DNA of 19,771 bases from an uncultured delta proteobacterium (lineage in GTDB: Bacteria > Desulfobacterota > WTBG01 > CAIYCZ01), in contig CAWDOY010000004.1 of the NCBI GenBank assembly GCA_963803975.1, forward strand, positions 1 through 19,771, written 5' to 3'. The position numbers were made by a program, and so were the translations under genes. The notes below the pieces were generated by a model that was not told the origin of the DNA, searched no databases, and saw only the letters and a list, made by a program, of their open reading frames with translations. Positions 1-16,853 of this stretch are shown one piece after another. Within the stretch, counting starts at the first letter, position 1. Every line of letters starts with the position of its first letter.

Positions 1-9
1 AGAAGAACA

Positions 10-1244: not shown

Positions 1245-1280
1245 AAAACTGAACTGCTGCAGGAAGGAGGAAAAGAATTT

Positions 1281-2213
1281 ATGAAAGAGCGCTGCTCATC
1301 GTGCTGGCCGGATTTGCCTATTTTTTCGTGTCAGTGATGCTGTTCATTCCATTGCGGATGAAGCCCATCCCCAACTATAATCTGTTCTTTTTCTCCCTCA
1401 TGAGTGCAGTGTTTCTCTTCCTTTTCTATAAAGCCTGCACGGTCCAGCAGAGAAAGTACCGGCTATTTGTTCGCGCTGTTTGCCGGCAATGCACTGTGGC
1501 AGGTGATTGGAGAGCTTGCCTCGTTGCGGGTAACACAAGGTATGATACTGCAGTTCAGCGATGTTAATATCAAGCTGGTGGGCGGGTACCTGTATGTTCT
1601 CGCTGGCTGGATTCTGCTCTTCATCATGTGGAAGACACAGGTGCTGCGCAAAAGGATCTGTTTTTGTTTCGTGATATTCCTGGGCATATGGTCTCTGGAG
1701 CTGTACCTTGACAACTACTCTTCTTCCGTGCCGGTTGAATTGATGCCCCGGGTTGCCAACATAATCGGCACGGTATTTATTATCGTGTCCATGGTACTAC
1801 TCTTTCTTGCCAGAAAAGCGGCAAGCATCCAGAAACAGACGGTACTGGGCGGCCTGCTGTATTTATCGGTCTCCATAGTGCTGATGGCATTTACCCAGTG
1901 GCAGAAGCCGCAAACGTTTTATCTGCTGCATGAGAAACCAATGATAGAACACGAGATAAAGGCGCTGCAGGAGGAACTGGCATATCTCAACCAGCTGCGG
2001 GAAAAGCTCGGCATTCGCGAAGGTGCTTCCCTGTCTGAGCAGCTGAGCATAAAGCAGGTCCAGGAAAGCCGCCGTCAGCACAGTAGCAGGAGAGGGCAGC
2101 GAAAGAAACAGATGCGGTACATAGCACAGGAGGCGGAAAAGGAGCATGCGTTACGATGTTGCAGTAGTGGGAGCGGGACCGGCAGGGCTGATGGCGGCAA
2201 AGACAGCGGCTGA
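1281..2213 (+). CDS. Multi-pass membrane protein of unknown function with a predicted C-terminal coiled coil (frameshifted; 3' end uncertain)
   Basis: GGAGG Shine-Dalgarno before ATG 1281. Hydrophobic segments continue from ORF 1301..1567 into ORF 1404..2213 (about 7 TM-like stretches), followed by EHEIKALQEELAYLNQLREKL. The annotated end overlaps the next gene, so the true stop may lie earlier. Confidence 0.6.
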
Positions 2214-3417
2214 ACATGGGCTCAGGACAGTACTCCTTGAAAAAAGGAAAGACGTTTCTAAAATAACCCGTGCCTGCTGCCAGCAGTTTATAATGGACGA
2301 GAACTTTCAGGGAGAAACCATTACGCATTGACCAAGGGAAAAGTAATTTTTACAAAGAACGGGTTTGACGTTGATTACCAGGGCCCGCTTCTGAATGTTA
2401 CGGATAAATATTTTGTCTCGCCCGGTGGACATGCGATTCACTTTACCAATAATGACAACTGCCCGATTGTAGTTAAATTTGATAAGGGCCTTCTGTTGCA
2501 GGGAATATGGAACCAGTGCGACAGGCTGGGTGTGACATTACGCGATGGCGCACTTGTCTGCAAAGCTGAAGATAGAAGCACCGGCGTTGAGATGACCATA
2601 AACGCTGGCGGAGTTTCCGAAAAACTGCATGCAAAGAAGCTCATAGTTGCAGATGGCGTCAATTCAAAAACAGCGGGAATACTCGGTCTCAACCAGAGCA
2701 GGACATGTTTTGCAACAGCTCTGTGCACTCTCTCGGTAATTGAAGGACTTCAGGATTTTGAGCCGTGCACGTTAAAAGCTTTATGGGCTGCGCCTATCAA
2801 TCCTTTGCACCCTTAATTATGGGGCCTGCGCTGGAGGGAAGCGATCTCAGGTATCTGGTCATCATAGCCAATAAGAACAAAACCCGAGCAGATCTATCAG
2901 GATGTCGTCACCAAGAGCCCTCTGGCAACAATGTTTGCCAATGCACGGGTCGTTAAGAAAATGGCCTGCATGGCAACAGCATACAGTTCCCTGAAGATTC
3001 CGTACAGGGGCAATGCTCTTGATAATTGGCGATGCGGCAGCCTATGTGGAGGTTGAAACGCAGGGGCGCTCACCTGCGGCTTTCGTGCCGGCACTGCTGT
3101 GTATCAGGAACTCTCCGGTATGGACGGCTTTGCGGAATACACCAGGTGGTGGCAGGATACCTTTGAATTTAACAGTGATGATTATCTTCAGGTGGCCCAG
3201 GGCTTTGCTCTGGTTCCAACGTATACCGATGATGAGACTCGATTACCTTTTTGCATTGATCGAAAATGAGACCTTGGAAGGGACTTTTAACCAGTACAAG
3301 TCGCCCCGGCTTATGTGGAAAGCGTTTCTCAGGCACACGGAAAGAATTGCCCGTGAACGGCCCGAACTGCACCAGAAAATACTTACCCGGAAATTATCTC
3401 TGAGCGATGTTCTGTAG
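2146..3417 (+). CDS. NAD(P)/FAD-dependent oxidoreductase, geranylgeranyl reductase/FixC-like family (several frameshifts)
   Basis: AAGGAG SD. N-terminal YDVAVVGAGPAGLMAAKTAAEHGLRTVLLEKR Rossmann motif, LIVADGVNS (2328..2816) and IIGDAAA (3013..) FAD motifs. Fragments join into one protein of about 420 aa ending at TAG 3417. Confidence 0.82.
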
Positions 3418-3562
3418 TATATCTGCGGGTAACAGTTAAGGCCCGCTCAGTCAGAGAAACCCGGCCCATTTGTTTATACAAGACTCCGCAAACAATTGTT
3501 ACATATGAATAAATATGAAAGATGAATATAGAATTATAATTTATTAAAAAAGGAGAAGCACC

Positions 3563-4352
3563 ATGAACAAAGCAGAAAATTTTAATCGCGATGATTGCAG
3601 CCGGCCTCGTAGCCCTGGGAGGCTACGGGGTGCAGTCTGCAGCAGCAAAAGAGAAAAAGCAGGCGCCGGCCGCAGAGCAGAAAAAAGCGGCATCCATTGA
3701 TGCCGCGGCAAAGCTGAGTGAAAACCACCCTGACTTTGAAGAGGGAACAAGCTGCAACGACTGCCATGAAGTAAAGCTTGACGCCAAGACAACCGCCACG
3801 CAGGCCTGGCTGTATGGCGACTACCTCTCATGGAAAAAAGGCGAGGGCGTTATGCCGAAGGATAAACTCTGGGAGCATATAGTAAAGGTTATCGGCGGCT
3901 CGAAGAGCAAAGAAGACCTACATCCTCGCGACCGTCCTCAATAACCGGCCCTATGCGATTACTATTGAATACGCTCTTGATCCCGGTAAAAAAGGTCATG
4001 TACGCATTCTCTGAAAAGGGTACCTCAAAGCTCAATCAGATAAAAGCAAATCCCTATGTGGCTCTGGGGTGGCATGAAGAATTCAAGAACGACTTCACCA
4101 AGCTGCTCTGCGTATCTCTTAACGGCCGCGCCGAGCTTTTCGACGGAGCATCCAAAGAGTTTGATGAGGGATCTGAGCGTGTACCCCTATGAATACGGCG
4201 CCAACATGAGAAAAATCCCCTTGGACAAATTCAAGGCGATTATGAAACAGGCTATGATTATGAGCAGAATTACCCTGGATGAAGTCACCGTCACCGATAC
4301 TTCTTTAAAGGACGAGGGATTCAGAACCAGACAACGCTGGATGCGAAAGTAG
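3563..4352 (+). CDS. Exported mono-heme c-type cytochrome (CNDCH) fused to a pyridoxamine-5'-phosphate-oxidase-like split-barrel domain (four +1 frameshifts)
   Basis: AAGGAG SD then ATG 3563. Rebuilt N-terminus MNKQKILIAMIAAGLVALGGYGVQSAAA is signal-peptide-like. CxxCH at 3753-3767. It continues KKTYILATVLNNRPYAITIEYALDP / VMYAFSEKGTSKLNQIKANPYVAL / LSVYPYEY...RQRWMRK-TAG, with the LAT..P and K..QI..NP.V split-barrel motifs. Confidence 0.7.
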
Positions 4353-4370
4353 CATAGAAAAGGAAAAGCC

Positions 4371-5577
4371 ATGCTGAACAAGGTCGTTATTGCCAGCGCC
4401 TGCCGGACACCGATAGGCGATTTACTGGGCACGCTGAAAGATGTTCACCCCCGGGAACTGGGCCGTATCGTCGGAGCGGAAGCTCTGAAACGGGCGGGCC
4501 TTGCTCCCGGACAGGTAGATGAACTGGTGTGCGGAAATGTAATCCAGGCAGGGGTGGCGGCAAATATCTGCGCGCCAGATTCAGGCAGCGCTCGGCATTC
4601 CCTGGCAGGCGCCGGCCTGCACCGTGAACCAGCTCTGCGCCTCGTCAATGCGCGCTTTTGAAATTGCCAGCCACAACATCATGGTCGGCGCGAGCAGTGT
4701 TTCTCTGGTGGTGGGAACCGAGAGCATGAGCGGCGCGCCGTATCTGCTGCTGAAAGGAAGAAGCGGCTACCGGATGGGTTCCGGTGTCATCGAAGACGCC
4801 ATGCTGCTTGACGCTCTCGTTTGTTCCATAGAGCATTACCATATGGGAGCGACTGCAGAAAACGTGGCAGCCGCGTTCGGCATCACCCGGGAAGAGCAGG
4901 ACCGGCTGGGAGTCTTGAGCCAGGAGCGGGCCATTGCCGCCATAAAGAGCGGTAAATTCCGTGATGAGATAGTGCCCGTTGAAATTAAAGAGAAAAAGGG
5001 TGTCAGGCTGTTTGATACTGATGAGCATCCGCGCGAAGGCACTACCATGGAGGCGCTGGCAAAGCTGAAGACAGTTTTTAAAGAAAACGGCACGGTAACA
5101 GCAGGTAATGCCTCAGGCGTTAATGACGGTGCTGCCGCCGCGGTGCTCATGTCGGAAGAGAAAGCAAAAGAGCTCGGCATCAAACCGCTTGCCCGTGTGG
5201 TAACAACGGTGAGCGCCGGGGTTGACCCCGCCGTGATGGGGCTGGGGCCCTCTGTTGCCATCCCCCTGGCACTAAAGAGAGCGCAGCTTACATTTTCTGA
5301 TATTAATTACTGGGAGGTTAACGAAGCGTTTGCCGCGCAGTTCATAGGCGTTGAGCGCAAATTAAAGCTTGACTATAACTTTGAATTTAATATGGATATA
5401 GTGAACCGGAACGGTTCCGGCATATCGCTGGGACATCCGGTCGGCTGTTCAGGCTTGCGGGTGATAGTAACCCTGCTGCACGAGATGCAGAAGATGAACG
5501 CCCGGCTCGGGTGCGCGTCTCTGTGCGCCGGTGGCGGGCCGGCGATGGCAGCGATTATTGAGCGGGATGGGGGGTAA
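4371..5577 (+). CDS. Acetyl-CoA C-acyltransferase (thiolase); one +1 frameshift near 4570
   Basis: [12 protein letters not shown] start, active-site [34 protein letters not shown] and SLCAGGG motifs across ORFs 4371..4661 and 4624..5577. Confidence 0.93.
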
Positions 5578-5613
5578 ACAAGGAAACTACAGAGAATCCG
5601 GGAAGGGAAAGCG

Positions 5614-7061
5614 ATGAAGGTTTTGAAATGGATAGTTGATACTGCTGATCATTGTTGTCGGCGCGGGCTACGGGATTATATCAATATAAAAATCAGCGGC
5701 TCAAGCCCGACTATTTTGAAGTCTATAAAAAACAGGACACCACCCCGGTAGGCAAAGTGGGCGTGTTTATTACGACACTCATCATGCCCGAGGAACTGAG
5801 CTACCCCTTCTTTTACAACGTCACATTTAAAATCTTCAACACCATCGTGCCCTGGCCCTTCAGGAATTTTGTGCAGAAGGATTCAGGCGTTGCACTTCTT
5901 GATCCGGTAAAATATCACGAACATAACGAATTCCAGCCGACGAAACTGGTCGATCCCTTCGGCAATGACCGGGACCTTGACGGCACGCCCTACGTGGAAA
6001 AGTATAAGCAGGGCCAGATGAAATGGATACCGCCATCGAAGATGATTTACCTTGATCACGGGTACTTTCTCTATGCGGGGCGGCAGGGTGGTATGCCATC
6101 CATTGCCGGCAAGGTTATGAACAAGGCGCACATCTGGTACTATGGCAAGGGGCTGGGAAGCACGAAACTGCCCCACTGGCAGCAGACCTTCGCCGTTATA
6201 GACGGCGCCATGGACCGAATAAAGCAGAAATACCCCGACGTGCAGTGGCGGGCGGAAACCAGCATGCTGTATGCTGACATGAGACACAAGCTGCATGAGC
6301 TGCTTGACGCGGGCTGCGATACCATTGTGCTGTCATCACCGCTTGCCATGTATTCACATTTTGAGGACTTCAACTCCGGGTTCCGGCATTCAATTGAGTA
6401 CATCGAAGAGTGGGAGCACGAGCACCCGGGTAAAAAGATCAAGGTAATCATGGCGCCGCCCATGGGAAACTATAAGCCCATGCGGGATGCATATCTGCAG
6501 ATGCTGAAAGACCGGCTGGACAGCCTGCCGAAAAACGCCTCGGTGATGGTGGCGGTGACCGTGCATGGCATGCCGTGGGACAAGTTCAAATGGGAGGCAT
6601 GGCTTGAGCTTGCCCCGGCATACCGGGACAAACTTTTTGAAGAGGTCAAGCAGATGGTTGCATCCTACAAGTTTCCGAAGACCAATGTGGTGCAGTGCCA
6701 GGATGAGTTTGCAGACCCCATCTGGGACCCACAGCAGAAATACCTCTCCACCAACCGCGCCTACTGGGCCGCCATAAAAGAAGGCTATGACTACGCCATT
6801 GGCCTTCCCATAGAATTTTATGCCGAAAATTCCGACACCATGTTTCACCACGCGCTGAAAAACTACAAGGATTTTGACCAGTATGATGTGTATAAGCAGA
6901 TAAATTACACGGACTGGTCGCAACCCTATGTCAGAGAAATGGTGCAGGGCAAAACTCATGTCATATATAACGGGGTGCCGGTCGGCAAGTACCAGCCCTA
7001 CGTTATTGATGCTCTTTACCAGTCTCTGGATAGCATTCTATCCAAGCGTGCAGGGAAATAA
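5614..7061 (+). CDS. Ferrochelatase-like (class II chelatase fold) protein with N-terminal membrane anchor or signal; two +1 shifts in the first 60 nt
   Basis: ATG 5614 gives MKVLKWIV-ILLIIVVGAGY-GLYQYK after removing two extra bases. The body (ORF 5652..7061) has LLDAGCDTIVLSSPLAMYS, VTVHGMP and LPIEFYAENSDTM, which parallel the HemH motifs G..ivvlPLyPqyS, SaHGlP and PigFvsDhlETl. Confidence 0.6.
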
Positions 7062-7133
7062 AACCTACCCTGATCTGATAACGGTTTTACCTTTTTTATC
7101 CCCATTCTTACCCGGCGGATGATTCCTTTTTTA

Positions 7134-7162
7134 TTGACCTGAAGATAAAAACATAGTACATT
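7134..7162 (+). promoter_or_regulatory. Putative sigma70 promoter for tetR and the downstream cluster
   Basis: TTGACC (7134-7139), 17-bp spacer, TACATT (7157-7162) in an AT-rich intergenic region. Confidence 0.65.
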
Positions 7163-7163
7163 G

Positions 7164-7185
7164 AAATTGAATCCATATTCAATTT
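7164..7185. promoter_or_regulatory. Palindromic operator, likely bound by the adjacent TetR
   Basis: Perfect inverted repeat AAATTGAAT-CCAT-ATTCAATTT just downstream of the -10 box, covering the expected transcription start. Confidence 0.65.
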
Positions 7186-7253
7186 ACCTCCTTATTGGTT
7201 AAAAATATATAATATTCCTTTATATAATTTAAATTAACCCACCTTTATGTCTT

Positions 7254-7874
7254 ATGGGCGATTCAAAAAAAACGAAAATACTGAATGCAGCAATTAAAGT
7301 TTTTGCAGAAAAGGGCTACCAGTATGCGACCATAGCCGAGATCGCCAGAGAAGCAGGTATTTCAACAGGGCTTGTCTACTCATATTTTGAGAACAAGCTG
7401 GATTTGCTGCTGTCGCTCAATCTCCGTTTTTTCCAGATGGTTAATGTCATAAACCAGAAAAAACTTGCGCAGATATCAGACCCGGTGGAAAAGCTGTTCG
7501 CGCTGTTCCGGACGTATCATGAAATACTGCTCCACGATAAGAAATCACTCTACTGGGGCACTATTATCAGGGAAGGGTTCCCGCAGCCGCACATGGTTAA
7601 AAGTAAAAAATTGAAGCAGAAGCAGAGTAAAATCTATGAGGAGAACAAACAGCTCCTTAAAACCATCGATGACATAGTAGCGGAGGGACAGCGGAGGGGG
7701 AAAATCGATACTACGTTAAAGCCCCAGCTGCTGCGGCAGATCTTCGGCGGCACCAGCCAGATTCTGTTCAACGGGCTGTTTCTGCAGGACTACCGTCAGG
7801 AAGAAATCGGATATGATAGAGAGGATATCCCCAAAGCCATGACAGCGCTGCTGGGGAAATTTGTAACCAGATAA
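7254..7874 (+). CDS. TetR/AcrR family transcriptional regulator
   Basis: KILNAAIKVFAEKGYQYATIAEIAREAGISTGLVYSYFENKLDLL is a TetR_N HTH; 206 aa, intact. Confidence 0.95.
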   Translation: MGDSKKTKILNAAIKVFAEKGYQYATIAEIAREAGISTGLVYSYFENKLDLLLSLNLRFFQMVNVINQKKLAQISDPVEKLFALFRTYHEILLHDKKSLYWGTIIREGFPQPHMVKSKKLKQKQSKIYEENKQLLKTIDDIVAEGQRRGKIDTTLKPQLLRQIFGGTSQILFNGLFLQDYRQEEIGYDREDIPKAMTALLGKFVTR

Positions 7875-7955
7875 TCATCATGCACCAGCATTGCCGCACC
7901 AGGAAGCCGGCAGCCGACCAGATGACTGCACTACTGAATTGACAGGAGCATTGGT

Positions 7956-8195
7956 ATGAATGTACAGAGCCAGGGAAAAATTAAAAAAACAGTTTTCAGC
8001 GTTGATGAAGCGCTGTGCACCGGATGCGGAAAATGCGTCAAAGCGTGCCCCATGCTGATTTTGAAAATTAAAGAAAAGAAGTGCATCATGGTGAAGGAAT
8101 TCATGTGCCTTGAATGCGGCACCTGCATGCGCAAATGCCCGGAAAAGGCCATTATGATTGAAGGGCTTGATATCATGGGAACCATAGAAGAATAA
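7956..8195 (+). CDS. 2[4Fe-4S] bacterial-type ferredoxin
   Basis: CTGCGKCVKACP and CLECGTCMRKCP motifs; AGGAG SD; 79 aa. Confidence 0.92.
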   Translation: MNVQSQGKIKKTVFSVDEALCTGCGKCVKACPMLILKIKEKKCIMVKEFMCLECGTCMRKCPEKAIMIEGLDIMGTIEE

Positions 8196-8216
8196 CAGGA
8201 AAGGGGAAACAATACG

Positions 8217-8942
8217 ATGGAGGAGAAAATTCAATTCACGCCGTTTACTAAAATTCTTTTTGAGCTGCTTGCGGAACTGAACCCGGTCCAGGTCTATGAC
8301 TACGAGGGCATGGACATCCGGGATATCAATGAGTTTGAGCTGGAGGGGGAGAAGTGCTCGGCCAAATGCTACAAGGCTGACAAGCTGGAAAAAATCTGCG
8401 TGTCGTCGCTGAACTTTTTCGGCCAGATGGTGGCGGATGTCATCATTATCACGCCGGGGCATGAGTATGACATGCCGTACTTTGTCGTGGACTGGGACGA
8501 GTCGGAAGATCACATCTTTTTCATCGCCGACCTGCTCCCGAGCGATGACCCCGGGAGAAACCTCGATTATCTTGAAAACTATCTTTATAACCCCCTCGAA
8601 GAGCTCTATCAGAACTACAGTGAAATGCCCGGTCTGAAAAACAGCGTGTTTCACTGGGTGCGCGCGATCCATTCACCCTACATCATCACCGGAACCATAA
8701 AAAAAGAGCCGAAGAACATGGACATGCTTCTGAACTGCGCCAAAGATTATTTAAAGGCGTGGGTCGGGCTCTGGAAAAACGCGCAACCGCGCGACCCCAA
8801 CTCTGACTATATGAAGCTGGTGTACGCGCGCAGGGCCAACATCAGAAAGTTCTACCGCGAAAACGACCCGGGCGCAGGCCCGCTGACCAAATTTTTAGGG
8901 CCTGACCAGGCACAGCGGCTGCTCGCCGTTATAGAACCATGA
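8217..8942 (+). CDS. Ferredoxin-dependent bilin reductase / red chlorophyll catabolite reductase-like protein (paralog 1)
   Basis: 241 aa. P..EYDMPYFVVD, IADLLP, NLDYLENY, WVRAIHSPY, DYLKAW and C-terminal ENDPG..PLTKFLGPDQAQRLL follow the order and spacing of FDBR/RCCR motifs (PcyA, PebA/B, HY2, RCCR). Recognised by eye. Confidence 0.72.
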   Translation: MEEKIQFTPFTKILFELLAELNPVQVYDYEGMDIRDINEFELEGEKCSAKCYKADKLEKICVSSLNFFGQMVADVIIITPGHEYDMPYFVVDWDESEDHIFFIADLLPSDDPGRNLDYLENYLYNPLEELYQNYSEMPGLKNSVFHWVRAIHSPYIITGTIKKEPKNMDMLLNCAKDYLKAWVGLWKNAQPRDPNSDYMKLVYARRANIRKFYRENDPGAGPLTKFLGPDQAQRLLAVIEP

Positions 8943-8962
8943 TTAATGCTACGGGGGTTGAA

Positions 8963-9039
8963 GACACAGAATATTGCTACAGGGCACACAGAGAAACAGG
9001 ATTTGAAAAATTTTAAAAACCCTCTGTGACCTCTGTGTC
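8963..9039. repeat. Intergenic CACAGAG/CTCTGTG imperfect inverted repeat
   Basis: GACACAGA (8963-8970) and CACAGAG (8987-8993) face CTCTGTG (9022-9028) and TCTGTGTC (9032-9039). Related half-copies lie at 10787-10796 and 13933-13950. Confidence 0.6.
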
Positions 9040-9099
9040 AGCAGTTTTTCAGTGTTCTGGTTTGTTTCAACAATACGCAAACAAAAAGGAGGAGATGCC

Positions 9100-9804
9100 A
9101 TGGACGTTAAGTACCCGCTGCTCGATGCAGGCAGAAAGGCCCTGGAAAAATTGTCCCTGAAATCTGTTGCCATAGACCCGGCACTCAAGCATATCGAAGC
9201 CGAGGACGGCAGAGTGTATATAGACGTGTATCGCGGAGAAAAAATCTCCAAGGCTGTCTTCTCCGCCATTGAGATTCACTCCATGTCGGTTGCCGAGCAG
9301 TCGATAATTATCTGGCCTGAAGACCCCTATGATTTTCCGGTATTCTGGTGCAACCTCACGCAGATGCCGGGCATGAGCTTCTTTATTTTTGATTTCATGC
9401 CGGTCATGGACATTGTGGTGTGGCCTGAATACGGAGAAAAGTATTTGCTGGGTCTTCTCGAGATGAAGGCGAACGCGCTTGAAAAACTCGGTGACGGGGT
9501 CGCGGAAAAACATTTTGATCTCAGCTCCCTTGCCGGCTGGGCATTTTCTCCCTATCGCACGCTGTTCCGTCTGACCGAAGAAGGGGTGGCGCATATTGAC
9601 CCGGTTGTTCAGGAATATGGCCAGGCCTATGTAAAGCTGTGGCAGGAAGCAGCGCCGGTGCAGAAAGCTGAGGAAGCGGCATTCTGCAAGCGCAAAAAAG
9701 CAGCGGTACGAAAAATCATGTCTGAGAATGATCCCGGTCACCCCCTGATGCTCGGGGTGTTCGGTGAAGAAAAGACGGAAAAGGTCTTTGAGATTGTTTT
9801 TTAG
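9100..9804 (+). CDS. Ferredoxin-dependent bilin reductase-like protein (paralog 2)
   Basis: AAGGAGG SD places the start at ATG 9100 (234 aa). WPEDPYDFPVFWCN, IFDFMP, EYGEKY, AFSPY, EYGQAYVKLW and ENDPGHPLMLGVFGEEKTEKVFEIVF match the FDBR pattern and are colinear with paralog 1. Confidence 0.75.
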   Translation: MDVKYPLLDAGRKALEKLSLKSVAIDPALKHIEAEDGRVYIDVYRGEKISKAVFSAIEIHSMSVAEQSIIIWPEDPYDFPVFWCNLTQMPGMSFFIFDFMPVMDIVVWPEYGEKYLLGLLEMKANALEKLGDGVAEKHFDLSSLAGWAFSPYRTLFRLTEEGVAHIDPVVQEYGQAYVKLWQEAAPVQKAEEAAFCKRKKAAVRKIMSENDPGHPLMLGVFGEEKTEKVFEIVF

Positions 9805-9879
9805 GCAGCGTGGTATATGTGCGGAACCCCGCCAATTATGCGTGGTTCCCGGTATCTATGAATATCAAAGGGGAGCATC

Positions 9880-10686
9880 ATGGAAACAGGAGCGAGAAGG
9901 TTTATTGACCAGCATGTTATAGTAACCGGCGCCGCGACCGGCATCGGACGGGCCATTGCCCACCGTTTTGCCGCTGAAGGTGCAAAGGTGGTAATCGCCA
10001 ACCGCAACCGCGAGCGTGGCGAGAAGGTTGCGCAGGAGATCAGGGATAAGGGCTGGACAGCACAGTATATCAGGGTTGATGTAGCTGAGCCGGAATCAAT
10101 CAATGAGCTCATCAAAAAAGCAGTCAGTACCTTCGGGCCGGTTCACGTGGCAGTATCAAATGCCGCGGTGAGTGAGACCCAGTCATCGGCACTTGACCTA
10201 AGTGTTGAGGAATGGGACCGGATTTTTAATATCAACGCGCGGGGCTCATTTCTTTTCAGCCGCGCCTGCGCGCAGAACATGATTGACAACAATATTCCGG
10301 GCTCGATCGTCACGCTCTCATCAATTATGGCCCGCTCCGCAAAAAGCATGTCAGGAGCGTATCCTGCCTCAAAGGCAGCGGTCATCATGTTCACCAAGAA
10401 CCTTGCCAAGTTGCTTGGGCCCATGGGCATCAGGGTGAACTGCGTGACCCCCGGCGTGGTGGCGACTGAAATCTGGCATGAAGTGGAATCAGAGATGATG
10501 ATGGAGAAGGACACGTTTGCGGACTGGCTGATTGAGCAGTCAGTTGCCAGCGGGCAGCTGCTCATTCCGCGGATCGGTCAAGCGGAAGAAATCGCCTCGG
10601 CTGTTGCCTTCCTGGCATCAGGCGAGGCATCCTATATCACCGCCCAGGTGCTCTCGGTTGACGGCGGCATGGACTGGTGCTGGTAA
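9880..10686 (+). CDS. Short-chain dehydrogenase/reductase (classical SDR)
   Basis: TGAATGIG, SNAA, catalytic S...YPASK, RVNCVTPG and YITAQVLSVDGG motifs; intact 268 aa. Confidence 0.95.
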   Translation: METGARRFIDQHVIVTGAATGIGRAIAHRFAAEGAKVVIANRNRERGEKVAQEIRDKGWTAQYIRVDVAEPESINELIKKAVSTFGPVHVAVSNAAVSETQSSALDLSVEEWDRIFNINARGSFLFSRACAQNMIDNNIPGSIVTLSSIMARSAKSMSGAYPASKAAVIMFTKNLAKLLGPMGIRVNCVTPGVVATEIWHEVESEMMMEKDTFADWLIEQSVASGQLLIPRIGQAEEIASAVAFLASGEASYITAQVLSVDGGMDWCW

Positions 10687-10694
10687 ATAGCGTA

Positions 10695-10726
10695 AGAGCT
10701 GACAGCTGTCAGCGGTCAGCTTTCTT
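10695..10726 (+). terminator. Palindrome/hairpin after the SDR; possible terminator or short repeat
   Basis: Perfect 16-bp palindrome GCTGACAGCTGTCAGC (10698-10713). An alternative stem AGCTGAC/GTCAGCT (10697-10703/10715-10721) is followed by TTCTT. Confidence 0.4.
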
Positions 10727-10829
10727 CAATTATTTTATCTGTCGCACCTTGACAGTTCTATTCAGTGATGACTTGGTTCTGATGTGCTCTGTGGTTACGT
10801 TTTTCTGTTGCTGGTGATAAGGATTGCCT

Positions 10830-11204
10830 GTGGAACTGAATCAGATTCTGTATATCGTTGCCTACTGCACGTTCATGGCGGGCGCGGCAAAATCCTTCCG
10901 CGATAACGGCAGCACGCTTTCTGTCTGGATAATGTCCGGCGGTGTTATCCTTGATTTTCTCATGAGCATTCTGCCGGTGCTCGGGGTCAAGGCGCTGAGC
11001 TCAGACCTGAAGGGCACCAACGGCGTCATCATCTTTGCCATCGCGTTCGGCTTTGCGGTGTGGCTCACCTATGTTGCGGCGCTCATTGTGCGCAAAAAGG
11101 GCAATAAGCCGCTGTTTCATGTGCTCATCGCAGTGGTCGAGATTTCCTGGTTCATAGATTTCATTTCATTCCTCTACGGGATGTACAAGTTCCCGCTTCA
11201 TTAA
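10830..11204 (+). CDS. Small membrane protein of unknown function (about 4 TM helices)
   Basis: Four hydrophobic segments. AAGGA SD at 10819-10823 favours GTG 10830 over TTG 10824. Confidence 0.7.
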   Translation: MELNQILYIVAYCTFMAGAAKSFRDNGSTLSVWIMSGGVILDFLMSILPVLGVKALSSDLKGTNGVIIFAIAFGFAVWLTYVAALIVRKKGNKPLFHVLIAVVEISWFIDFISFLYGMYKFPLH

Positions 11205-11228
11205 TTTCCAAGAACTGGATGTAACATC

Positions 11229-12694
11229 ATGACACAAAACCACTCTAAAGATCTGTTGAAGGCGCTTTGTGACATTGTCGGAGCCTCCTATGTTACCGAT
11301 GACCCGGTGACGAGGTTTACCTACACGCAGGACGCAAGCCTGTTTGGCGGCACGCAGTCAGCGCTTGTCGTGCGGCCGGGTTCAACGGAAGAGGTTTCGC
11401 GCATTGCGGCCCTTGCCAACCGGCATCGCGTGCCTCTTGTCACGCGCGGCGGCGGCGCCACCATTTACGGCTCGCCCAGGGGTGACGCGGAGCGCACCGT
11501 GCTCCTGGACATGACGCGCATGGACCGGGTGATTGAGGTGAACACCGCAGGCATGACCGTCACGGCACAGGCAGGCATTATCATAAATAAGCTCGTGCTT
11601 GCCTGCAGAGAGAAAGGCGTGTACATGTGGGCGCCGTTTGCCCCGCTGCACATGGTGTCTCTTGGCGGCTGGATATCAGGCGCGGCCGGTGCAGCCGGTC
11701 TCTGGGGCGATATCGTGAGCATCACCGTGGTGCTTGCTGACGGCACCATCGTGCAGACCGGCGGCGGGCCCGGAACGAATATCCACCAGCCGGTCTTTTT
11801 CAACCGCAACCTGGGCGGCCCTGATTTTGCCGGCATATTTATCGGCGACGGCGGCTCCTTCGGCATTAAAACCCAGGCGACGATCCGCACCACGAGACAG
11901 CCTTCTCTGGTGCGGGCCGGCATCTTCGCCTTTGACGAGCTTGAGCCCGCGATGGAGATGGTGCGCCTGCATGTGGAGCGGCGCACGGTGCAGCGTTACG
12001 ATCCGGTGCTGGTTTTCGGCGCCGGGGCCATGAAAAATTTTGTGGGGGATACCGATGCGGTGGCGCCCTTTACCGTGCAGGCAATGATGCAGGGCCATGA
12101 CGCGGCAGAGCTTGACGCCAAGCTCGCCATCATACACAGCATTGCCGAGCAGTGCGGAGCGCGGCGCGACCCCATGCTCGACGCCATGGCAGAGGCCATG
12201 GGAACGCCGACGGGTGAAGACAGCGAAATGGACTGGATGGCCATTTTCAACAGCTTCGGCATTGCGGCATGGCTGCCCTTCACGCTGCCCCGGCAGAGTT
12301 TTCCCGCAGTGTATAAAAAGCTGATCACCTGGCGGAACGAGCGGCTTAAAGAGGCTGAAAAACTCGGTCTCGCGGCTGCGCACGACCTGGGAGTTCTTCA
12401 CCTCAAGTGACCCGAGCACCATAACCGGGGAGATCGATGCGTTTCTTTGCCGATGTCGAAAACCCGCAGACAACAGCATTTGCCCGCACCCTCATGGCGG
12501 ACTTTCAGAAATACGCCCACAGCCTTGGCTCAATTGATGTCTACAACCAGGGATTCATGGCCGACCTGAACGCCTCATGCTGGTCGCCGGGCTTCAAGCG
12601 CCTGTTTGATGCGGTCAAGACAATACTTGATCCGAACGGCATTATCAATCCGGGGCAGTGGGCGGGAAGCTATCTGCGCGAGGGAGGAGAATGA
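11229..12694 (+). CDS. FAD-binding oxidoreductase, GlcD/VAO-PCMH family; two +1 shifts near 12375 and 12442
   Basis: VVRPGSTEEV, TRGGG, LLDMTRMDRVIEVN, VVLADGTIV and FIGDGGSFGI in ORF 11229..12410. A bridging frame TTWEFFTSSDPSTITGEIDA leads into 12437..12694, ending VKTILDPNGIINPG. Confidence 0.88.
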
Positions 12695-13925
12695 CTATGG
12701 CAAAATCGACCATGAAAGAGCTTGAAAAGGTCAAACACTTTATCTACAGCTGCCGCAAGTGCGGTGTGTGCCGCTACAAGATGACCGGCAAAATGCCCTA
12801 TGTCTGCCCGGTGAAACAGGCCAGCCCGGGGTTTGAAACATTTTCCTCCCGCGGAAAAATAATACTGGCGCAGGCCCTGCTGGAAGGGCAGCATCGAGCC
12901 ATCCGCCGGACTGGCAAGCGCTGCCTACAGCTGCACCATGTGCGGCAACTGCATGACCCAGTGCGGCGCCACCGACCCGGACACGAACAGCCCTCTCGTT
13001 GATAATCCCGCGATAGTCGAGGCGCTGCGGGCTGATTTATTGCGGGAGCATCCCGAATATGTACCTGAAGCGTATCACCACGCGCTGGCCGTGACGCGCC
13101 AGTACGGCAATCCCTGGGGCATGCCGCGCTCAGCCCGGGGGAAATGGGCAAAGGGGCTCAAGATAAAGGATGCGCAGAAAGAAAAGTGTGAGGTGCTGCT
13201 GTTTGCCGGCTGCACCATGAGTCTGAACCCTGAGCTGACCCCGCGCATTAAAAAAGCTGTATCCGTGCTCAAGGCTGCAGGAGTTGACCTGGGAACGCTC
13301 GGCGCGGCAGAGCCCTGCTGCGGCAGCGTACAGCAGCGCATCGGCGCGCGGGAGCTTGCCGCGGAGATGATCGCAGGCAACATTAAGCAGCTGAACAGCC
13401 TTGGCTGCACAACAATTGTGACGCTCTGCGCCGGCTGCTGCAATATGCTGAGAAAAGAATATGCTACATGCAGAGGAAAAGCTTGCGCCGAAGGTATATC
13501 ATCTCGTTGAATATCTGGCTCGGCTTATAAAGGAAAACAAACTTACCTTTACAAGAGAGCAGAATATAACCCTGGCCTATCATGACCCCTGCCATCTGGG
13601 ACGACATCTCGAGGTATTTGATCCGCCCCGCGCTATACTCAAAGCACTGCCGGGCATAACACTTGTGGAGCGGACAGCCACACGGGAGAACACCATTTGC
13701 TGCGGAGCGGGTGGTGGTATGCGCCTTTTTGACGGAGGCATCTTCGCGCAGGACATGGGCCTTGAAGCGGTGAAGGCCGCGCGCGATGCCGGCGCCCAGG
13801 CGCTTGTTTCTGCATGTCCGTTTTGCGAAACAAATCTTTCCGCAGCCTCGCAGATTGGAAATAGTCCGGTGCCGGTATACGATATTATTGATCTGGTGAG
13901 CGACGCTCTGGAAGTAAAGAGTTGA
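12691..13925 (+). CDS. (Fe-S)-binding CCG-domain protein, GlcF/HdrD-like partner of the FAD oxidoreductase; +1 shifts near 12890 and 13468
   Basis: ATGA overlap with the upstream stop (alternative start 12697). CRKCGVC...CP, CTMCGNCMTQC, LLFAGCT, EPCCG, TLCAGC, YHDPCHLGR, CCGAGGG and SACPFC motifs. Confidence 0.88.
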
Positions 13926-13974
13926 AAATAATCTCTGTGCCTCTGTGGTTAATTTTTAAAAAAGGAGAACAGCC

Positions 13975-14557
13975 ATGCCCGCATCTGCAAAAAAAGACCA
14001 AGGCCCAGATAAAAAAAGACATCATCAGTTTCCTCGATAAAACCTCAGGCGGCGTTGACCCGAAACCGGGGAAGTACGGCTGCGGCATGCTGCATCACAA
14101 TGCCCTGGTGCTGGCAACATCGTATAATGACACGCCGCGCGCCACGGTGCTTGAATTTTTCAACGAAGGCCTTACCATCTATATCTTCGGCGAGCCGGGC
14201 GGAAAGATCGCAAACCTGAAAAGAAACCCGAAGGCTTCTGCCGTGGTGTACGAGCAGCCCCTGGACCACGGAAAATTTCAGCGCAGCCTGCAGATCTTCG
14301 GCACCACCGAGCTTATCAACGTGCGGAATAACGCAAAGCTCTTTAACGCCAAGATGAAAAAATGGAACCTGCTTTCAGTGGGGAAAAAGCTCCTGAGCCC
14401 GATGCTGAAAGCACAGAATCTCTCCGGCAAAGCAGCAGACGAGACCGTAATAAAATTCCTCTCCGCGCTCAACATCATAAAAATTATTCCGCAGCACATC
14501 ATCCTGAAAGAGTACCATCCGGACTTCTCGATGCACAAGTACGAGTGGAAGAAGTAG
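13975..14557 (+). CDS. Pyridoxamine-5'-phosphate-oxidase-like (split-barrel flavin/heme-binding) protein; +1 shift in the A7 run 13989-13995
   Basis: AAGGAG SD then ATG 13975. LVLATSYNDTPRATVLEF, IYIFGEPGGKIANLKRNPKAS and SLQIFG are split-barrel motifs. Confidence 0.8.
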
Positions 14558-14676
14558 ATCACCCCCTCACCCCATCCCTCTCCCGCCGGGGTGAGAGGGA
14601 GAGCTGTTCTAAATGTTCCGGATAAGCTGGTTAAATCTCCCCTCCCTTGATGGGAGGGGATTAAGGGGAGGGTGAT
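14558..14676. repeat. Inverted pair of C-rich/G-rich palindromic intergenic repeats (BoxC/REP-like)
   Basis: CCCCTCACCCCA-TCCCTCTC...GAGAGGGA (14562-14600) and TCCCCTCCC-TTGAT-GGGAGGGGA-TTAAGGGGAGGGTGA (14638-14675), bounded by ATCACCC/GGGTGAT. Confidence 0.75.
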
Positions 14677-14678
14677 TC

Positions 14679-15758
14679 ATGCAGTACCGAAGACTCGGAA
14701 GGACCAACCTCAATGTGTCAGCCATTGCCTACGGCGGGCTGCCGACCGTGTTCCAGCCCCCTGATGTGGTAATCGAGGCGATCAACTATGCCCTTGACCA
14801 GGGGGTGAACTATTTTGACCTTGACGAGGGCGGCAACCAGTTTGCTTCGGAGAAAGTCTATCTTGATGGCGCCTCCAAGATCGGCCAGGTGCTGAAGGCG
14901 CGGCGCGGCGACTGCTATCTCGGCGTGAAGAGCATGCGCCAGACCTATGAGGAGCTCAAGTATGATGTTGACCTTGCGCTGGAGCGACTGGTGAAGGGCA
15001 CCTCGCGTGAAGTGATAGATATTTTCCAGCTTGCTTTTCTTGACAGCCCGGAAAAGGTTAAACTGGTTCTTTCCAGGCAGGGCGGCTTGAGGGCGCTTGA
15101 AGAGGCGCGCGAAGAAGGAAAGATCGATTTTATCCTGGCCACTGCCCACAACCCGAAGACCCTTCTGCAGGCCATGGAGACCGGCCGCTTTGACGTCATC
15201 GAATTTCCCTTTAACATCATTGAGAATGAATATTTAAATAAGGTGATGCCCCTCGCGGAGAAGATGGACCTGGGAACGGTCGTGATGAAGCCGGTTGGCG
15301 GCGGCCAGCTGGCAAGCCTCTATGACCTGTCGCTGCGCTGGATTCTGCAGCACGAGGTTGACTGCGTGATTCCCGGCATGAAAAACATCGAGGAAGTTAA
15401 AAAGAACGTGGTGTTCGGCAGCCGAGCGGAGCCGCTGACAGAAGAGGAACTTGCAAAACTTGAGAAGCTGGGAAAAGAAGTTGGCGCGGAATACTGCCAC
15501 CGCTGCGGCTACTGCATGCCCTGCCCGCAGGGCATCATCATCGTCGGGGTGATGGACCTGATGCGCGGGCAGATGCTCTCTCCGGACATGAAAAAGCGCT
15601 CCTACAACGAGGTGCTGAAGAAGCGCCTGAAGAGCGACCCGGCAAACTGCGAGCAGTGCGGCCAGTGCGTGGAGAAGTGCCCGTTCAAGCTGCCCATACC
15701 AAGCCTTATGCAGCGGGCGGTGGAACTGTTCGGGGAAGGCGGCTGTGAGGCGTACTAA
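14679..15758 (+). CDS. Aldo/keto reductase with C-terminal 4Fe-4S dicluster domain
   Basis: MQYRRLGRTNLNVSAIAYG, GVNYFD and VVMKPVGGG, plus C-terminal CHRCGYCMPCP and CEQCGQCVEKCP; intact 359 aa. Confidence 0.92.
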   Translation: MQYRRLGRTNLNVSAIAYGGLPTVFQPPDVVIEAINYALDQGVNYFDLDEGGNQFASEKVYLDGASKIGQVLKARRGDCYLGVKSMRQTYEELKYDVDLALERLVKGTSREVIDIFQLAFLDSPEKVKLVLSRQGGLRALEEAREEGKIDFILATAHNPKTLLQAMETGRFDVIEFPFNIIENEYLNKVMPLAEKMDLGTVVMKPVGGGQLASLYDLSLRWILQHEVDCVIPGMKNIEEVKKNVVFGSRAEPLTEEELAKLEKLGKEVGAEYCHRCGYCMPCPQGIIIVGVMDLMRGQMLSPDMKKRSYNEVLKKRLKSDPANCEQCGQCVEKCPFKLPIPSLMQRAVELFGEGGCEAY

Positions 15759-15821
15759 TAAGGTACGCTGCAATGACGAAGGATGAGGAAACGCAGCGGA
15801 CGGGTATTTTTCAACAGCCTG
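15745..15821. repeat. Partial MITE-like multicopy element ending in TTTTTCAACAGCCTG
   Basis: GCGTAC-TAATAAG-GTACGC hairpin, then GACGAAGGATGAGG and terminal TTTTTCAACAGCCTG (CAGGCTGTTGAAAAA on the - strand) next to TTAG. It resembles, from memory, a dispersed repeat of deltaproteobacterial genomes; only one end is present. Confidence 0.5.
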
Positions 15822-16811: not shown

Positions 16812-16853
16812 GGTGTCTCCTTTTCTATGCTGAAAAAACAGTTAAACAATTTT

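Follow-up and report, generated by a model that had tools for sequence, protein, structure and literature searches.

A ferredoxin-linked pair of putative FDBR-fold reductases in a conserved gene cluster of an uncultured sulfate-reducer-type bacterium

INTRODUCTION

To our knowledge, each FDBR characterised to date works downstream of a heme oxygenase that requires oxygen or, for RCCR, of the oxygenase PAO, and has its role in photosynthesis, light sensing or plant senescence; the oxygen-free degradation of tetrapyrrole pigments is little understood. HY2 and PebB take their electrons from a plant-type ferredoxin, the plant RCCR pathway requires the oxygenase PAO for ring opening, and ChuY, which takes part in anaerobic heme degradation, is not known to be an FDBR. 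PetF is the donor used in PMC13446030 (available portion), and the two-enzyme synthesis of PEB by PebA and PebB is described in the available portion of PMC6755814. The pre-PcyA FDBRs (pre-1 to pre-3; Rockwell et al. 2023, Frascogna et al. 2026) occur in non-photosynthetic bacteria, in clusters that also encode BBAG globins and V4R proteins and, in most cases, a heme oxygenase (PMC10151467, available portion). We found no paper on ferredoxin-fused FDBRs or on FDBR expansions in anaerobes; the outgroup 'RCCRs and related sequences' of PMC10151467 may include such proteins.

The window analysed here, a stretch of 19 771 nt, belongs to the 4.25 Mb, 98 % complete genome of an uncultured sulfate-reducer-type bacterium. 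An initial annotation of the sequence had drawn attention to two adjacent FDBR-like paralogues, here called P1 and P2, behind a ferredoxin gene. New beyond that observation are a ferredoxin fusion, a conserved nine-gene operon, a ferrochelatase-like neighbour and a lineage-wide expansion of FDBRs.

RESULTS AND DISCUSSION

Family and fold of P1 and P2

The ORFs that had been claimed for a TetR regulator, a ferredoxin, a 241-aa P1 and a 234-aa P2 all exist, and those of the ferredoxin, P1 and P2 are intact. P1 (8217–8942) and P2 (9100–9804), encoded like all genes below on the forward strand unless stated otherwise, are 25 % identical over 211 aligned residues (E-value, 1e-16), and the alignment bears out the colinear motifs YD.P.F, D..P, SPY and ENDPG. 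An upstream GTG at 9052 is an alternative start of P2 and would give a protein of 250 aa. Both score above the gathering cut-off (31 bits) of the Fe_bilin_red profile PF05996, P1 with 57.6 bits and P2 with 58.3 bits. Their AF2 models (pLDDT 92.2 and 94.3) are alpha/beta/alpha sandwiches with a central antiparallel sheet, and in Foldseek searches they match HY2, PebB, PcyA, RCCR and PebA with TM values of 0.75–0.83 (P1, 0.83 to tomato HY2; P2, 0.81 to GtPEBB and 0.80 to RCCR and PebA), in agreement with the FDBR fold first proposed for them. At E≤1e-3 only FDBRs, RCCR and two chains of an algal complex, one of which bears the title PcyA, are found through rank 45, and coproporphyrinogen oxidase follows.

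The best PDB sequence-profile matches of both proteins are tomato HY2 (6KMD/6KME; 44.7 bits for P1 and 44.1 for P2) and GtPEBB (6QWQ/6QX6; 29.8 and 35.8 bits), with which they share the sandwich (TM 0.81–0.83) but only 17–20 % identity. No NCBIfam equivalog cut-off for PcyA, PebA or PebB is reached by either: the best model, NF009720, gives 34.8 bits (P1) and 35.9 bits (P2) against a cut-off of 263, the PebB and PebA models 25–36 bits against cut-offs of 263–327, and the PcyA model NF002760 21.1 bits with P1 against 206. The suggestion that P1 is closest to RCCR was not supported. The RCC_reductase profile PF06405 (cut-off 24.9) yields 19.8 bits with P1 and 12.3 bits with P2, PDB RCCR chains reach 19–21 bits with the P1 and P2 profiles, and the P1 profile gives HY2 44.7 bits against 21.3 for RCCR; the RCCR fold is nevertheless the same (TM 0.76–0.80).

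In a tree whose rows are the representatives matched by the P1 profile, labelled by their NCBIfam and Pfam scores, P1 and P2 are not sisters and neither groups with the RCCR-like or the canonical PebA/PebB/HY2 rows; the RCCR-like representatives form a clade of their own (99), apart from P1. Canonical PcyA, pre-PcyA, PebS, plant RCCR and plant HY2 sequences are not among the rows, so that the tree does not bear on where the two proteins stand with respect to the PcyA/pre-PcyA branch or to the root, and no PcyA-type protein occurs among the 107 labelled representatives. As judged from sequence, P1 and P2 are members of two deep, unnamed clades. The expectation that a pipeline would call both genes hypothetical is partly right, since relatives are named 'hypothetical protein', '4Fe-4S binding protein' or 'PreA subunit', but Pfam recognises both.

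Active sites

Catalytic positions were assigned from HMM alignments to the GtPEBB and tomato HY2 chains, read against the available portion of PMC6755814. P1 carries the FDBR acid triad, as D92/D105/D217, and P2 has N85/D98/D211, the pattern of vascular-plant HY2. P1 D92 aligns with the central-strand Asp-99 of GtPEBB, a position that we take to be that of PcyA Asp105, and P1 D217 and P2 D211 align with the distal-loop Asp-219, so that the distal 'DP' aspartate of HY2 and PebB is kept in both proteins. P2 lacks the central-strand Asp and has N85 there, matching the Asn of vascular-plant HY2, in which another residue, Asp-116, takes over the role (PMC6755814, available portion). P2 D98 and P1 D105 align with an HY2 Asp 13 residues past that Asn; we infer that this is the Asp-116 of PMC6755814 (available portion), although the numbering does not itself show the equivalence. 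The models bear out this mapping: in that of P1, residues 88–96 and 99–107 form strands, and D217 falls in the loop between helices 197–216 and 220–227; the distal Asp occupies an inter-helix loop in both models.

Catalytic-site residues are invariant or nearly so within each family. D92 is found in 22 of 22 P1-family sequences, the P2 family keeps D98, D104 and NDPG without exception, and D217 and D211 both lie within invariant NDPG motifs. Two observations count against a bilin-reduction reading: where A-ring reducers have Arg-215, P1 has Tyr213, a difference from HY2 and PebB, and the central acid is not conserved among the paralogues of the genome, being D or E in about 8 of 15. The fold, the family membership and the difference between the active sites are shown here, and from the alignments and models the two would be catalytically different FDBR-fold reductases. 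A two-step pair of the PebA/PebB kind, as first proposed, is plausible because the active sites differ in this way. By analogy with PebA and PebB, the adjacent paralogues would each probably perform one two-electron step on a shared substrate, but both fall outside the PebA and PebB clades and P2 is not always present.

The ferredoxin and the surrounding cluster

The ferredoxin (Fd; 79 aa, 7956–8195) is of the 2x[4Fe-4S] type, with two CxxCxxCxxxCP motifs and a Fer4_7 score of 51.5 bits, and differs in this from the donor of HY2 and PebB. In 24 of 24 loci a ferredoxin gene is the immediate upstream neighbour of P1, and the two are fused in 78 of 96 homologues; in the window, as in loci L001 and L002, they are in the same frame and are separated by one TAA and 21 nt. 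The partnership proposed for the ferredoxin and the reductases is thereby supported, and in the adjacency and the fusions there is strong genetic evidence, at the sequence level, that the ferredoxin is the dedicated electron donor of P1. No fused P2 was seen among 30 near-length homologues, and a search of 3184 candidates revealed no longer (fused) form, which is weak evidence.

The locus comparison comprised 24 P1 loci, of which 23 were evaluable for P2. P2 is directly downstream of P1 in 14 of these (41–98 % identity) and missing from nine. The spacer between the two genes (8943–9099) contains an insertion of about 125–144 nt relative to the closest relatives; it is 32 nt long in L001 and L002, and the 157-nt form occurs only in C4 and C31. 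Around the pair, the conserved cluster consists of a GGR-like flavoprotein, a TetR regulator, an Fe–S aldo-keto reductase, a GlcD/HdrD-like pair, an SDR and a small membrane protein, and in L005 nine co-directional, tightly packed genes form an operon. To these the window adds a ferrochelatase-like protein, a thiolase, a PNPOx-like protein and a methyltransferase.

Upstream of the ferredoxin, the geranylgeranyl-reductase (GGR)-family FAD protein (2128–3414) was traced by tblastn with the intact 451-aa L005 protein, in pieces at 2128–2322, 2328–3236 and 3019–3414 that lie in three different frames; the C31 copy is in a single frame. The L005 protein scores 68.1 bits with TIGR02032 (GG-red-SF; cut-off 158.8). 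The thiolase (4371–5577; Thiolase_N and Thiolase_C) is split into two overlapping ORFs by a frameshift near 4624–4661, and its pieces are in frame in L002 and L003. The 469-aa product of 5652–7061 is a putative ferrochelatase-like (class II chelatase-like) protein, an assignment based on a sub-threshold Pfam match (PF00762, 22 bits; cut-off 27) and on its nearest ESM Atlas clusters, 'putative Ferrochelatase', with scores of 0.93–0.95; PDB sequences gave no meaningful match. Apart from the window, its gene adjoins the cluster in C31 and L003/L049 alone; this restriction to the closest relatives counts against a tetrapyrrole reading. The TetR-family regulator (7254–7874; TetR_N 58.1 bits) has a FadR/YsiA-like C-terminal domain (TetR_C_4 29.7 bits), matches the NCBIfam FadR-Bacillus model with 83 bits, under its cut-off, and has homologues in 8 of 24 related loci. 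The FadR/YsiA-like character of this regulator, with the thiolase and SDR as lipid-type enzymes, also counts against a tetrapyrrole reading.

Downstream of P2 lies the short-chain dehydrogenase/reductase (SDR; 9880–10686; adh_short_C2 208.6 bits), and 14 of the 24 loci carry a homologue of it, with 63–96 % identity, at most 4 kb away from P1. It is followed by a 126-aa membrane protein (10824–11204) with no Pfam family and a weak NCBIfam match (22 bits) to the N-terminus of a CPBP/Rce1 protease; its family is unassigned, it is present in eight loci, and in L005 it is kept between the SDR and the Fd::P1 fusion. The GlcD-like FAD-linked oxidase (11229–12694; FAD_binding_4 99.9 bits) occupies two frames, with a frameshift near 12380–12440, and the HdrD/TfrB-like Fe–S protein with two CCG domains (12712–13925) is frameshifted over three; the intact L005 forms are 490 and 401 aa long, the latter scoring 186.6 bits with the TfrB model, under its cut-off. 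A PNPOx-like split-barrel protein (13922–14557; PNPOx_N 34.6 bits) follows, and genes of this type also adjoin FDBR paralogues on C5 and C42. It was considered as a HugZ-type heme degrader, but phmmer found no HugZ, HutZ or ChuZ match among PDB sequences, only weak ones (general stress protein 26, E-value 0.016), and this reading was set aside. The aldo-keto reductase (14679–15758; Aldo_ket_red 59.6 bits) carries a C-terminal 2x[4Fe-4S] domain matching Fer4 families and has homologues in L002, L005, L018, L019 and L020. On the reverse strand, a Methyltransf_2-type SAM methyltransferase (15822–16811; 115.7 bits), also present in L002 and L003, has the BchU C-20 methyltransferase as its top NCBIfam model (74.6 bits; cut-off 276). 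That the methyltransferase and GGR matches are far under the family cut-offs is a further count against a tetrapyrrole reading.

A scan of positions 7000–11300 was not informative, with six promoter-like sites where 4.8 are expected and eight terminator-like sites where 4.5 are. Contigs from RNA libraries of two studies reach P1, P2 and the SDR, and two of them span P1 to P2 in the short-spacer form; they carry no transcript level, ends or strand and could derive from library DNA, and are a weak hint that these genes are expressed. DNA contigs with at least half of the sampled words were found in eight sequencing runs, and the RNA-library runs had 5–10 %.

Genome and lineage context

As the initial annotation stated, a profile search of the window shows no heme oxygenase, phytochrome or phycobiliprotein gene, and the same is true of the whole genome. 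There, no match was found to heme oxygenase (PF01126), the PHY domain, V4R (PF02830) or the phycobilisome/phycobiliprotein family PF00502, from which distant BBAGs may escape, and no HutW exceeded its cut-off. A bilin supplied by a heme oxygenase finds no support in these searches. Given this absence, the intact ORFs, the P1–P2 alignment, the PF05996 scores and the ferredoxin motifs, the original observation stands far above chance expectation. HY2 and PebB differ in their hosts from this non-phototrophic, anaerobe-type bacterium without a heme oxygenase.

The genome contains 22 FDBR matches. FDBRs were found in 31 of 41 relatives (6–22 per genome) and, in a phylum search at E≤1e-6 with at most 11 candidates per genome scored, in none of 243 other genomes of the sample. 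The ferrochelatase-like protein is present in 32 of the 41 and has the same phyletic pattern, both it and FDBRs being absent from families f3 (0/8) and f6 (0/1). In the protein library searched, one FDBR, P0231, is fused to a protochlorophyllide reductase PCP_red domain. On C42 the FDBR has a weak PCP_red match at a distance of 1.3 kb, and a further paralogue pair is accompanied by a B12-radical SAM enzyme and small ferredoxins. Other paralogues adjoin outer-membrane DUF1302/DUF1329/BNR modules, FMN reductases, corrinoid methyltransferase systems, nitroreductases and MFS transporters. With such varied neighbours, the 22 copies look like a broad catabolic toolbox, not a single pigment pathway, which also counts against a tetrapyrrole reading.

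Possible functions of the pair

We consider the chances evenly balanced that P1 and P2 carry out a sequential, ferredoxin-driven and oxygen-free reduction of a tetrapyrrole-derived substrate. The low-potential ferredoxin would deliver single electrons to P1, and probably to P2 too, with the substrate itself carrying the radical as in known FDBRs, and protons would come from conserved carboxylates (D92, D105 and D217 in P1; D98 and D211 in P2, whose central site holds Asn85). The outcome would be two regiospecific reductions in succession, of two electrons each, on a substrate most likely linear (bilin-type), which would be scavenged or made without oxygen because the genome has no heme oxygenase. 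The ferredoxin, P1 and P2 would form part of a TetR-controlled, catabolic-type cluster, and a catabolic role, as for RCCR, seems the likeliest. The ferrochelatase-like neighbour, the PCP_red links, the BchU-like methyltransferase, the GGR-family protein, and the B12-radical SAM enzyme and small ferredoxins beside another pair all count for a tetrapyrrole context, but the genome has no recognisable ring opener (no heme oxygenase, and no HutW over cut-off) that would account for a linear tetrapyrrole. ChuW and ChuY offer a functional analogy only, since there too an opened tetrapyrrole is reduced independently of oxygen by a dedicated reductase, and a sister paralogue locus of the genome pairs FDBRs with a B12-radical SAM enzyme; the genome nevertheless has no HutW/ChuW over cut-off and the window no radical SAM gene.

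Somewhat unlikely, in our view, is recruitment of the FDBR fold for non-tetrapyrroles, with P1 and P2 acting as ferredoxin-dependent ene-type reductases of another conjugated, probably hydrophobic compound acquired from sediment; an isoprenoid quinone, a polyene or carotenoid fragment, and an enone of aromatic or lipid origin are examples. The same carbon skeleton would then be the target of the GGR-like flavoprotein, the SDR, the thiolase and the FadR-like TetR. The copy number of 6–22 per genome, the paralogues beside DUF1302/DUF1329/BNR/MMPL-type envelope modules, FMN reductases, O-demethylase-type corrinoid systems, nitroreductases and MFS transporters, the FadR/YsiA-like regulator with a thiolase, SDR and GGR-family reductase in the cluster, the failure of the genome search to find a heme oxygenase or other known ring opener, and the differing active-site acids among paralogues all fit such a role. 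However, characterised members of the fold, and its neighbour coproporphyrinogen oxidase, all use tetrapyrroles, the proton donors specific to bilin reduction are retained and invariant in the P1 and P2 families, and the chelatase-like and PCP_red links point toward tetrapyrroles.

It is very unlikely that the pair is biosynthetic and supplies a reduced bilin chromophore or cofactor to an unrecognised bilin-binding protein (a sensor or redox carrier), much as in the pre-PcyA/BBAG systems. Heterotroph pre-PcyA FDBRs are active and some are clustered with an Fe–S protein (PMC10151467, available portion), and PebA with PebB is a precedent for a two-enzyme pathway (PMC6755814, available portion), but of the pre-PcyA partners only an Fe–S protein, the ferredoxin, is found here: PF01126, PF02830, PF00502 (phycobiliprotein/BBAG-type globin) and PHY are all without a match in the genome. 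Moreover, neither P1 nor P2 falls with the canonical PebA/PebB/HY2 rows, the TetR-controlled dehydrogenase/reductase cluster appears catabolic, and up to 22 copies are hard to square with a single chromophore. Slightly less probable still is that P1, P2 or both are non-enzymatic carriers or scaffolds for a tetrapyrrole or other ligand, for instance P2 as a non-catalytic partner of P1, as might be suggested by its N85, its lack of a ferredoxin of its own or of fused forms, and its absence from nine of the 23 loci, since the HY2 of vascular plants is an active enzyme despite sharing this Asn/Asp arrangement (PMC6755814, available portion), D98, D104 and NDPG are invariant in the P2 family, and P2 is retained beside P1 in 14 loci.

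Returning to tetrapyrrole reduction, a wider and unlikely extension is that this class-level lineage of uncultured anaerobe-type Thermodesulfobacteriota possesses an oxygen-independent network for the breakdown or salvage of tetrapyrrole pigments, of which the Fd–P1–P2 module would be one step. Its substrates might be the remains of chlorophyll, heme and bilins that reach anoxic sediment. Its parts might be the expanded FDBRs (6–22 genes in each genome, many of which carry a fused 2x[4Fe-4S] ferredoxin), the conserved ferrochelatase-like proteins in the role of dechelatases, and reductases of nitrogenase-like type that contain PCP_red domains. These clostridial-ferredoxin-linked, heme-oxygenase-independent FDBRs could then be candidates for the early 'archae-FDBR' forms sought by the field (PMC13446030, discussion, available portion).

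Significance

An FDBR pair with its own Fe–S donor in an anaerobe points to an unstudied, oxygen-free handling of pigment-like molecules. The FDBR fold is here tied to a low-potential, clostridial-type ferredoxin, in up to 22 copies per genome and without a heme oxygenase, and the cluster supplies named genes that make oxygen-free pigment degradation directly testable. If the substrate is not a tetrapyrrole, such an activity would be a first for the FDBR fold and would amount to ferredoxin-dependent reductase chemistry of a new, cofactor-free kind. The family is also relevant to how bilin biosynthesis arose.

A ferredoxin and two tandem FDBR-family genes

A TetR regulator (7254–7874), a 79-residue 2×[4Fe-4S] ferredoxin with two CxxCxxCxxxCP motifs (Fd, 7956–8195) and two paralogous proteins of 241 residues (P1, 8217–8942) and 234 residues (P2, 9100–9804) are encoded by ORFs on the forward strand. 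P1 and P2 match the Pfam profile of the ferredoxin-dependent bilin reductases (FDBRs; Fe_bilin_red, PF05996) with 57.6 and 58.3 bits respectively, both above the gathering cut-off of 31, and the initial annotation of tandem bilin-reductase-type paralogs behind their own ferredoxin and a TetR gene is thus borne out. The two proteins align with each other over 211 residues at 25 % identity (E-value, 1e-16). The best scores against the NCBIfam equivalogs for PcyA, PebA and PebB (34.8 bits for P1 and 35.9 bits for P2) are far below the cut-off of 263, and neither protein can be assigned to any of these three groups; Fd, P1 and P2 do not qualify as a pre-PcyA cluster either.

AlphaFold2 models of P1 (21 sequences; mean pLDDT 92.2, pTM 0.90) and P2 (25 sequences; pLDDT 94.3, pTM 0.92) both show the FDBR sandwich, whose absence would have refuted the fold assignment. 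When the PDB was searched with Foldseek (E≤1e-3), 45 matches were found for P1 and 48 for P2, and these are FDBRs (tomato HY2, PcyA, GtPEBB, PebA and PebS) and red chlorophyll catabolite reductase (RCCR), together with two algal motor complex chains, one of which carries the title PcyA; coproporphyrinogen oxidase is next in the lists. The query-normalized TM scores for P1 and P2 are 0.81–0.83 with HY2, 0.81 with GtPEBB, 0.73–0.75 with PcyA and 0.76–0.80 with RCCR. Their Pfam scores, fold and catalytic residues make P1 and P2 members of the FDBR superfamily.

Active-site residues

The P1 and P2 family profiles were aligned to PDB chain sequences and interpreted using the GtPEBB structure paper (PMC6755814). 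It names Asp-99, Arg-215 and Asp-219, the last in a short loop joining two covering helices, and describes how in vascular-plant HY2 an Asn replaces Asp-99, with its role passing to Asp-116 (PMC6755814). The GtPEBB chain numbering is offset by +2, as the aligned pair R217/D221 shows. In the profile alignment, P1 D92 and D217 occupy the positions of GtPEBB Asp-99 and Asp-219, Y213 that of Arg-215, and D105 that of the HY2 aspartate 13 residues past the central site, a site (D92) that we take to be equivalent to PcyA Asp105. P2 has N85, D98 and D211 at the positions of P1 D92, D105 and D217, which is the HY2 arrangement. The P1 model places D92 on a strand at 88–96, D105 on a strand at 99–107 and D217 in the loop linking helices 197–216 and 220–227, and the P2 model has the same secondary-structure layout around its site residues. 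Since these residues align, are invariant or nearly so within the respective families and agree with the modelled secondary structure, both of these FDBR-fold proteins retain the proton-donor machinery of bilin reduction, in two versions. The difference between the two sets would fit two different regiospecific steps.

The ferredoxin and its linkage to P1

A search of 5.8 billion proteins with P1 yielded 96 homologues. In 78 of them an extension of some 85 residues at the N terminus contains two complete 4Fe-4S motifs; three have a single motif and 15 have none. At the level of genome loci a ferredoxin coding stretch lies immediately 5′ of the P1 relative in all 24 cases, which come exclusively from metagenome-assembled or single-cell genomes, most of them Thermodesulfobacteriota or 'delta proteobacterium', with one Spirochaetota and one unclassified. 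Fd and P1 share a reading frame in the window and in two related loci, L001 and L002, and are separated by one TAA codon and 21 nt (8193–8219 in the window) that include the ribosome-binding-like sequence GGAAAGGGGA, whereas in more distant relatives an open linker of 25–30 residues joins the ferredoxin to P1. Because the frame is kept across a single TAA and 21 nt where most relatives have the open linker, the arrangement in the window is best read from sequence as a gene fission, conserved in L001 and L002, of what is usually a fusion, with Fd as the putative electron donor of P1 itself, a dedicated low-potential ferredoxin. The P2 homologues (30 real of 31 listed) are each 165–255 residues long and contain PF05996 alone; a search of longer proteins gave no fused P2 form, which is weak evidence.

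Position among known FDBR clades

An exhaustive P1 profile search of 1.84 billion representatives matched 154 proteins at E≤1e-3, 59 at E≤1e-10 and 11 at E≤1e-30. Labels were obtained for 107 of the matches by NCBIfam (52 of the 107 by Pfam too), among which are one true PebA, five PebA-like, four PebB/HY2-like, six weaker PebA/B-like and four RCCR-like proteins, and no PcyA. One labelled match, the 303-residue P0231, has an FDBR domain followed at the C terminus by PCP_red, a small helical domain known from subunit B of protochlorophyllide reductase; in the tree described below it falls in a clade of four rows with support of 100.

Relationships were examined in a quick, unrooted IQ-TREE maximum-likelihood tree of 124 rows picked by similarity to P1, with SH-aLRT support only, from which three spurious rows had been removed and whose reach stops short of the PcyA/pre-PcyA branch. 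The canonical PebA and PebB/HY2 rows form one clade (support 96) within a wider group (97) that includes five other paralogs of the window's genome. P1 belongs to a clade (96) made up of 40 unnamed rows, six further paralogs from this genome among them, P2 has its own clade of 10 rows (100) and the RCCR-like rows form a distinct clade (99). Given these separate clades, P1 and P2 represent old, distinct lineages and not recent tandem duplicates, and neither is an RCCR. The proposal that P1 is nearest to RCCR is therefore not upheld: the RCC_reductase (PF06405) scores of P1 (19.8 bits) and P2 (12.3 bits) are below the cut-off of 24.9, the RCCR-like clade stands apart and RCCR does not stand out in the fold search.

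The gene cluster and its second copy

The window makes up all of contig C4. The genome contains a second copy of window positions 1–16942, at the end of contig C31 (55869–72744; 88–97 % identity), which may reflect either true duplication or a strain variant binned with the genome, whose estimated contamination is 2.13 %. Fd, P1, P2 and a short-chain dehydrogenase (SDR) gene are unbroken in both copies. Four window genes that are intact in relatives are split by frameshifts, namely those for a geranylgeranyl reductase (GGR)-like protein (2128–3414), a thiolase (4371–5577), a GlcD-like protein (11229–12694) and a CCG protein (12712–13925). Since the relatives lack these frameshifts and the C31 copy is broken at other sites (its aldo-keto reductase gene is broken and its GGR gene intact, for example), the pattern fits that typical of assembly indel errors. 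Multi-frame pieces of a second HdrD-like CCG protein lie 5′ of the GGR-like gene (411–1241); L002, L003 and the copy on C31 each have an intact counterpart. The end of the contig (16988–19671) holds an AAA/DUF4143 ATPase gene and, on the opposite strand, an ISL3-family transposase; similarity to C31 ceases in this region because C31 itself ends.

The intact arrangement is seen in locus L005, where nine co-directional genes encode, in order, a GGR-family FAD protein, TetR, an aldo-keto reductase with a 2×[4Fe-4S] domain, a GlcD-like FAD oxidase, an HdrD/TfrB-like CCG protein, SDR, a 127-residue membrane protein, fused Fd–P1 and P2. Of the 23 loci that could be evaluated, 14 have P2 directly after P1; among all 24, an SDR orthologue is found no more than 4 kb away in 14 and TetR is present in eight. 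The genes make up a conserved, redox-rich operon under TetR. Additional genes encode a tungsten-type aldehyde:ferredoxin oxidoreductase and a DUF1329/DUF1302/MMPL envelope module in locus L006, and in the window a thiolase, a ferrochelatase-like protein, two PNPOx-like ORFs and, on the opposite strand, a methyltransferase whose best model is BchU, with a score far below the cut-off. The P1–P2 spacer (8943–9099) is 157 nt in the window and C31 and 32 nt in L001 and L002; the extra segment of about 125–144 nt occurs nowhere else in the genome and is predicted, from the native sequence alone, to form a long hairpin (−38.6 kcal/mol). In two studies, RNA-library contigs reach into P1, P2 and SDR, and two of these contigs run across P1–P2 with the short spacer; this is only a weak hint of expression.

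Genome and lineage distribution

The 4.25 Mb genome, 98 % complete, has 22 PF05996 matches, 17 of them above the cut-off, corresponding to some 13–15 distinct genes in about ten deep subfamilies when near-identical copies are allowed for. FDBR matches (six to 22 each) are present in 31 of 41 genomes of the same class, distributed by family as 3/3 (f1), 16/17 (f2), 0/8 (f3), 10/10 (f4), 1/1 (f5) and 0/1 (f6). In an even sample of the phylum (E≤1e-6) they are restricted to this genome and seven of its own order, with no match in the other 243 of 251; all of these counts are samples in which kin genomes are non-independent. The ferrochelatase-like protein, 60–70 % identical across families, has the same phyletic pattern (32 of 41 genomes, 1–8 matches each; f3 0/8, f6 0/1), and four of the 14 loci examined have an FDBR gene at most about 7 kb away from it. 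On contig C3 (168329–169711 and 159844–164612) a 70 % identical ferrochelatase-like paralog is found a few kb from PCP_red-domain genes.

The other FDBR paralogs of this genome neighbour FMN reductases (four loci), PNPOx-like proteins (two further loci), DUF1302/DUF1329 and BNR envelope genes (four loci), corrinoid methyltransferase systems (two loci), GGR-like flavoproteins with TetR and an Rce1-like protein, and, in one case, a protein with a weak PCP_red match. At C25:52662–59000 and C36:48753–54500, FDBR paralogs, one broken by a stop codon, sit beside corrinoid protein, MtrH-like, URO-D-like and RACo genes, which are methyltransferase or O-demethylase-type systems. At C8:12600–15521, two divergent paralogs are interspersed with three small ferredoxin ORFs and adjoin the gene for a B12-binding radical SAM enzyme, which might serve as a partner that modifies the ring without oxygen.

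Possible function

Single electrons would pass from the ferredoxin to P1, and probably to P2 too, with the Asp residues protonating the bound substrate, whose reduction would proceed through radicals, as it does with PcyA, PebA and PebB; P1 and P2 may act one after the other on one common substrate. To our knowledge the FDBR fold is associated exclusively with tetrapyrrole chemistry. For this reason, and in view of the conservation of catalytic residues and the links to chelatase-like and PCP_red proteins, we consider the chances about even that the substrate is tetrapyrrole-derived, most likely linear, and handled catabolically or for salvage. A non-tetrapyrrole conjugated compound, a possibility to which we give appreciably less weight, would suit the large size of the family, the variation of the central acid among paralogs, the lipid-type enzymes and regulator in the cluster and the hydrophobic-uptake modules close by. 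Heme oxygenase, phytochrome PHY, phycobilisome proteins and V4R have no matches in the genome, and HutW none above the cut-off, so that the lack of heme oxygenase, phytochrome and phycobiliprotein genes noted for the window extends to the whole genome, which has no oxygen-dependent ring opener; a chromophore-making role for P1 and P2 seems improbable. A non-catalytic role, set beside the near-invariant site residues, is slightly more improbable still.

By analogy, P1 and P2 may work like the PebA/PebB or HY2 type of reductase. Our literature search, part of it covering papers in partial text, returned no account of such ferredoxin-linked, heme oxygenase-free FDBR clusters or of their expansion, and the outgroup 'RCCRs and related sequences' of one study may include relatives (PMC10151467). 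Compared with published systems, the new features are a clostridial-type ferredoxin in fused form, the lack of heme oxygenase, the genes that share the operon and an expansion of the family restricted to this lineage.
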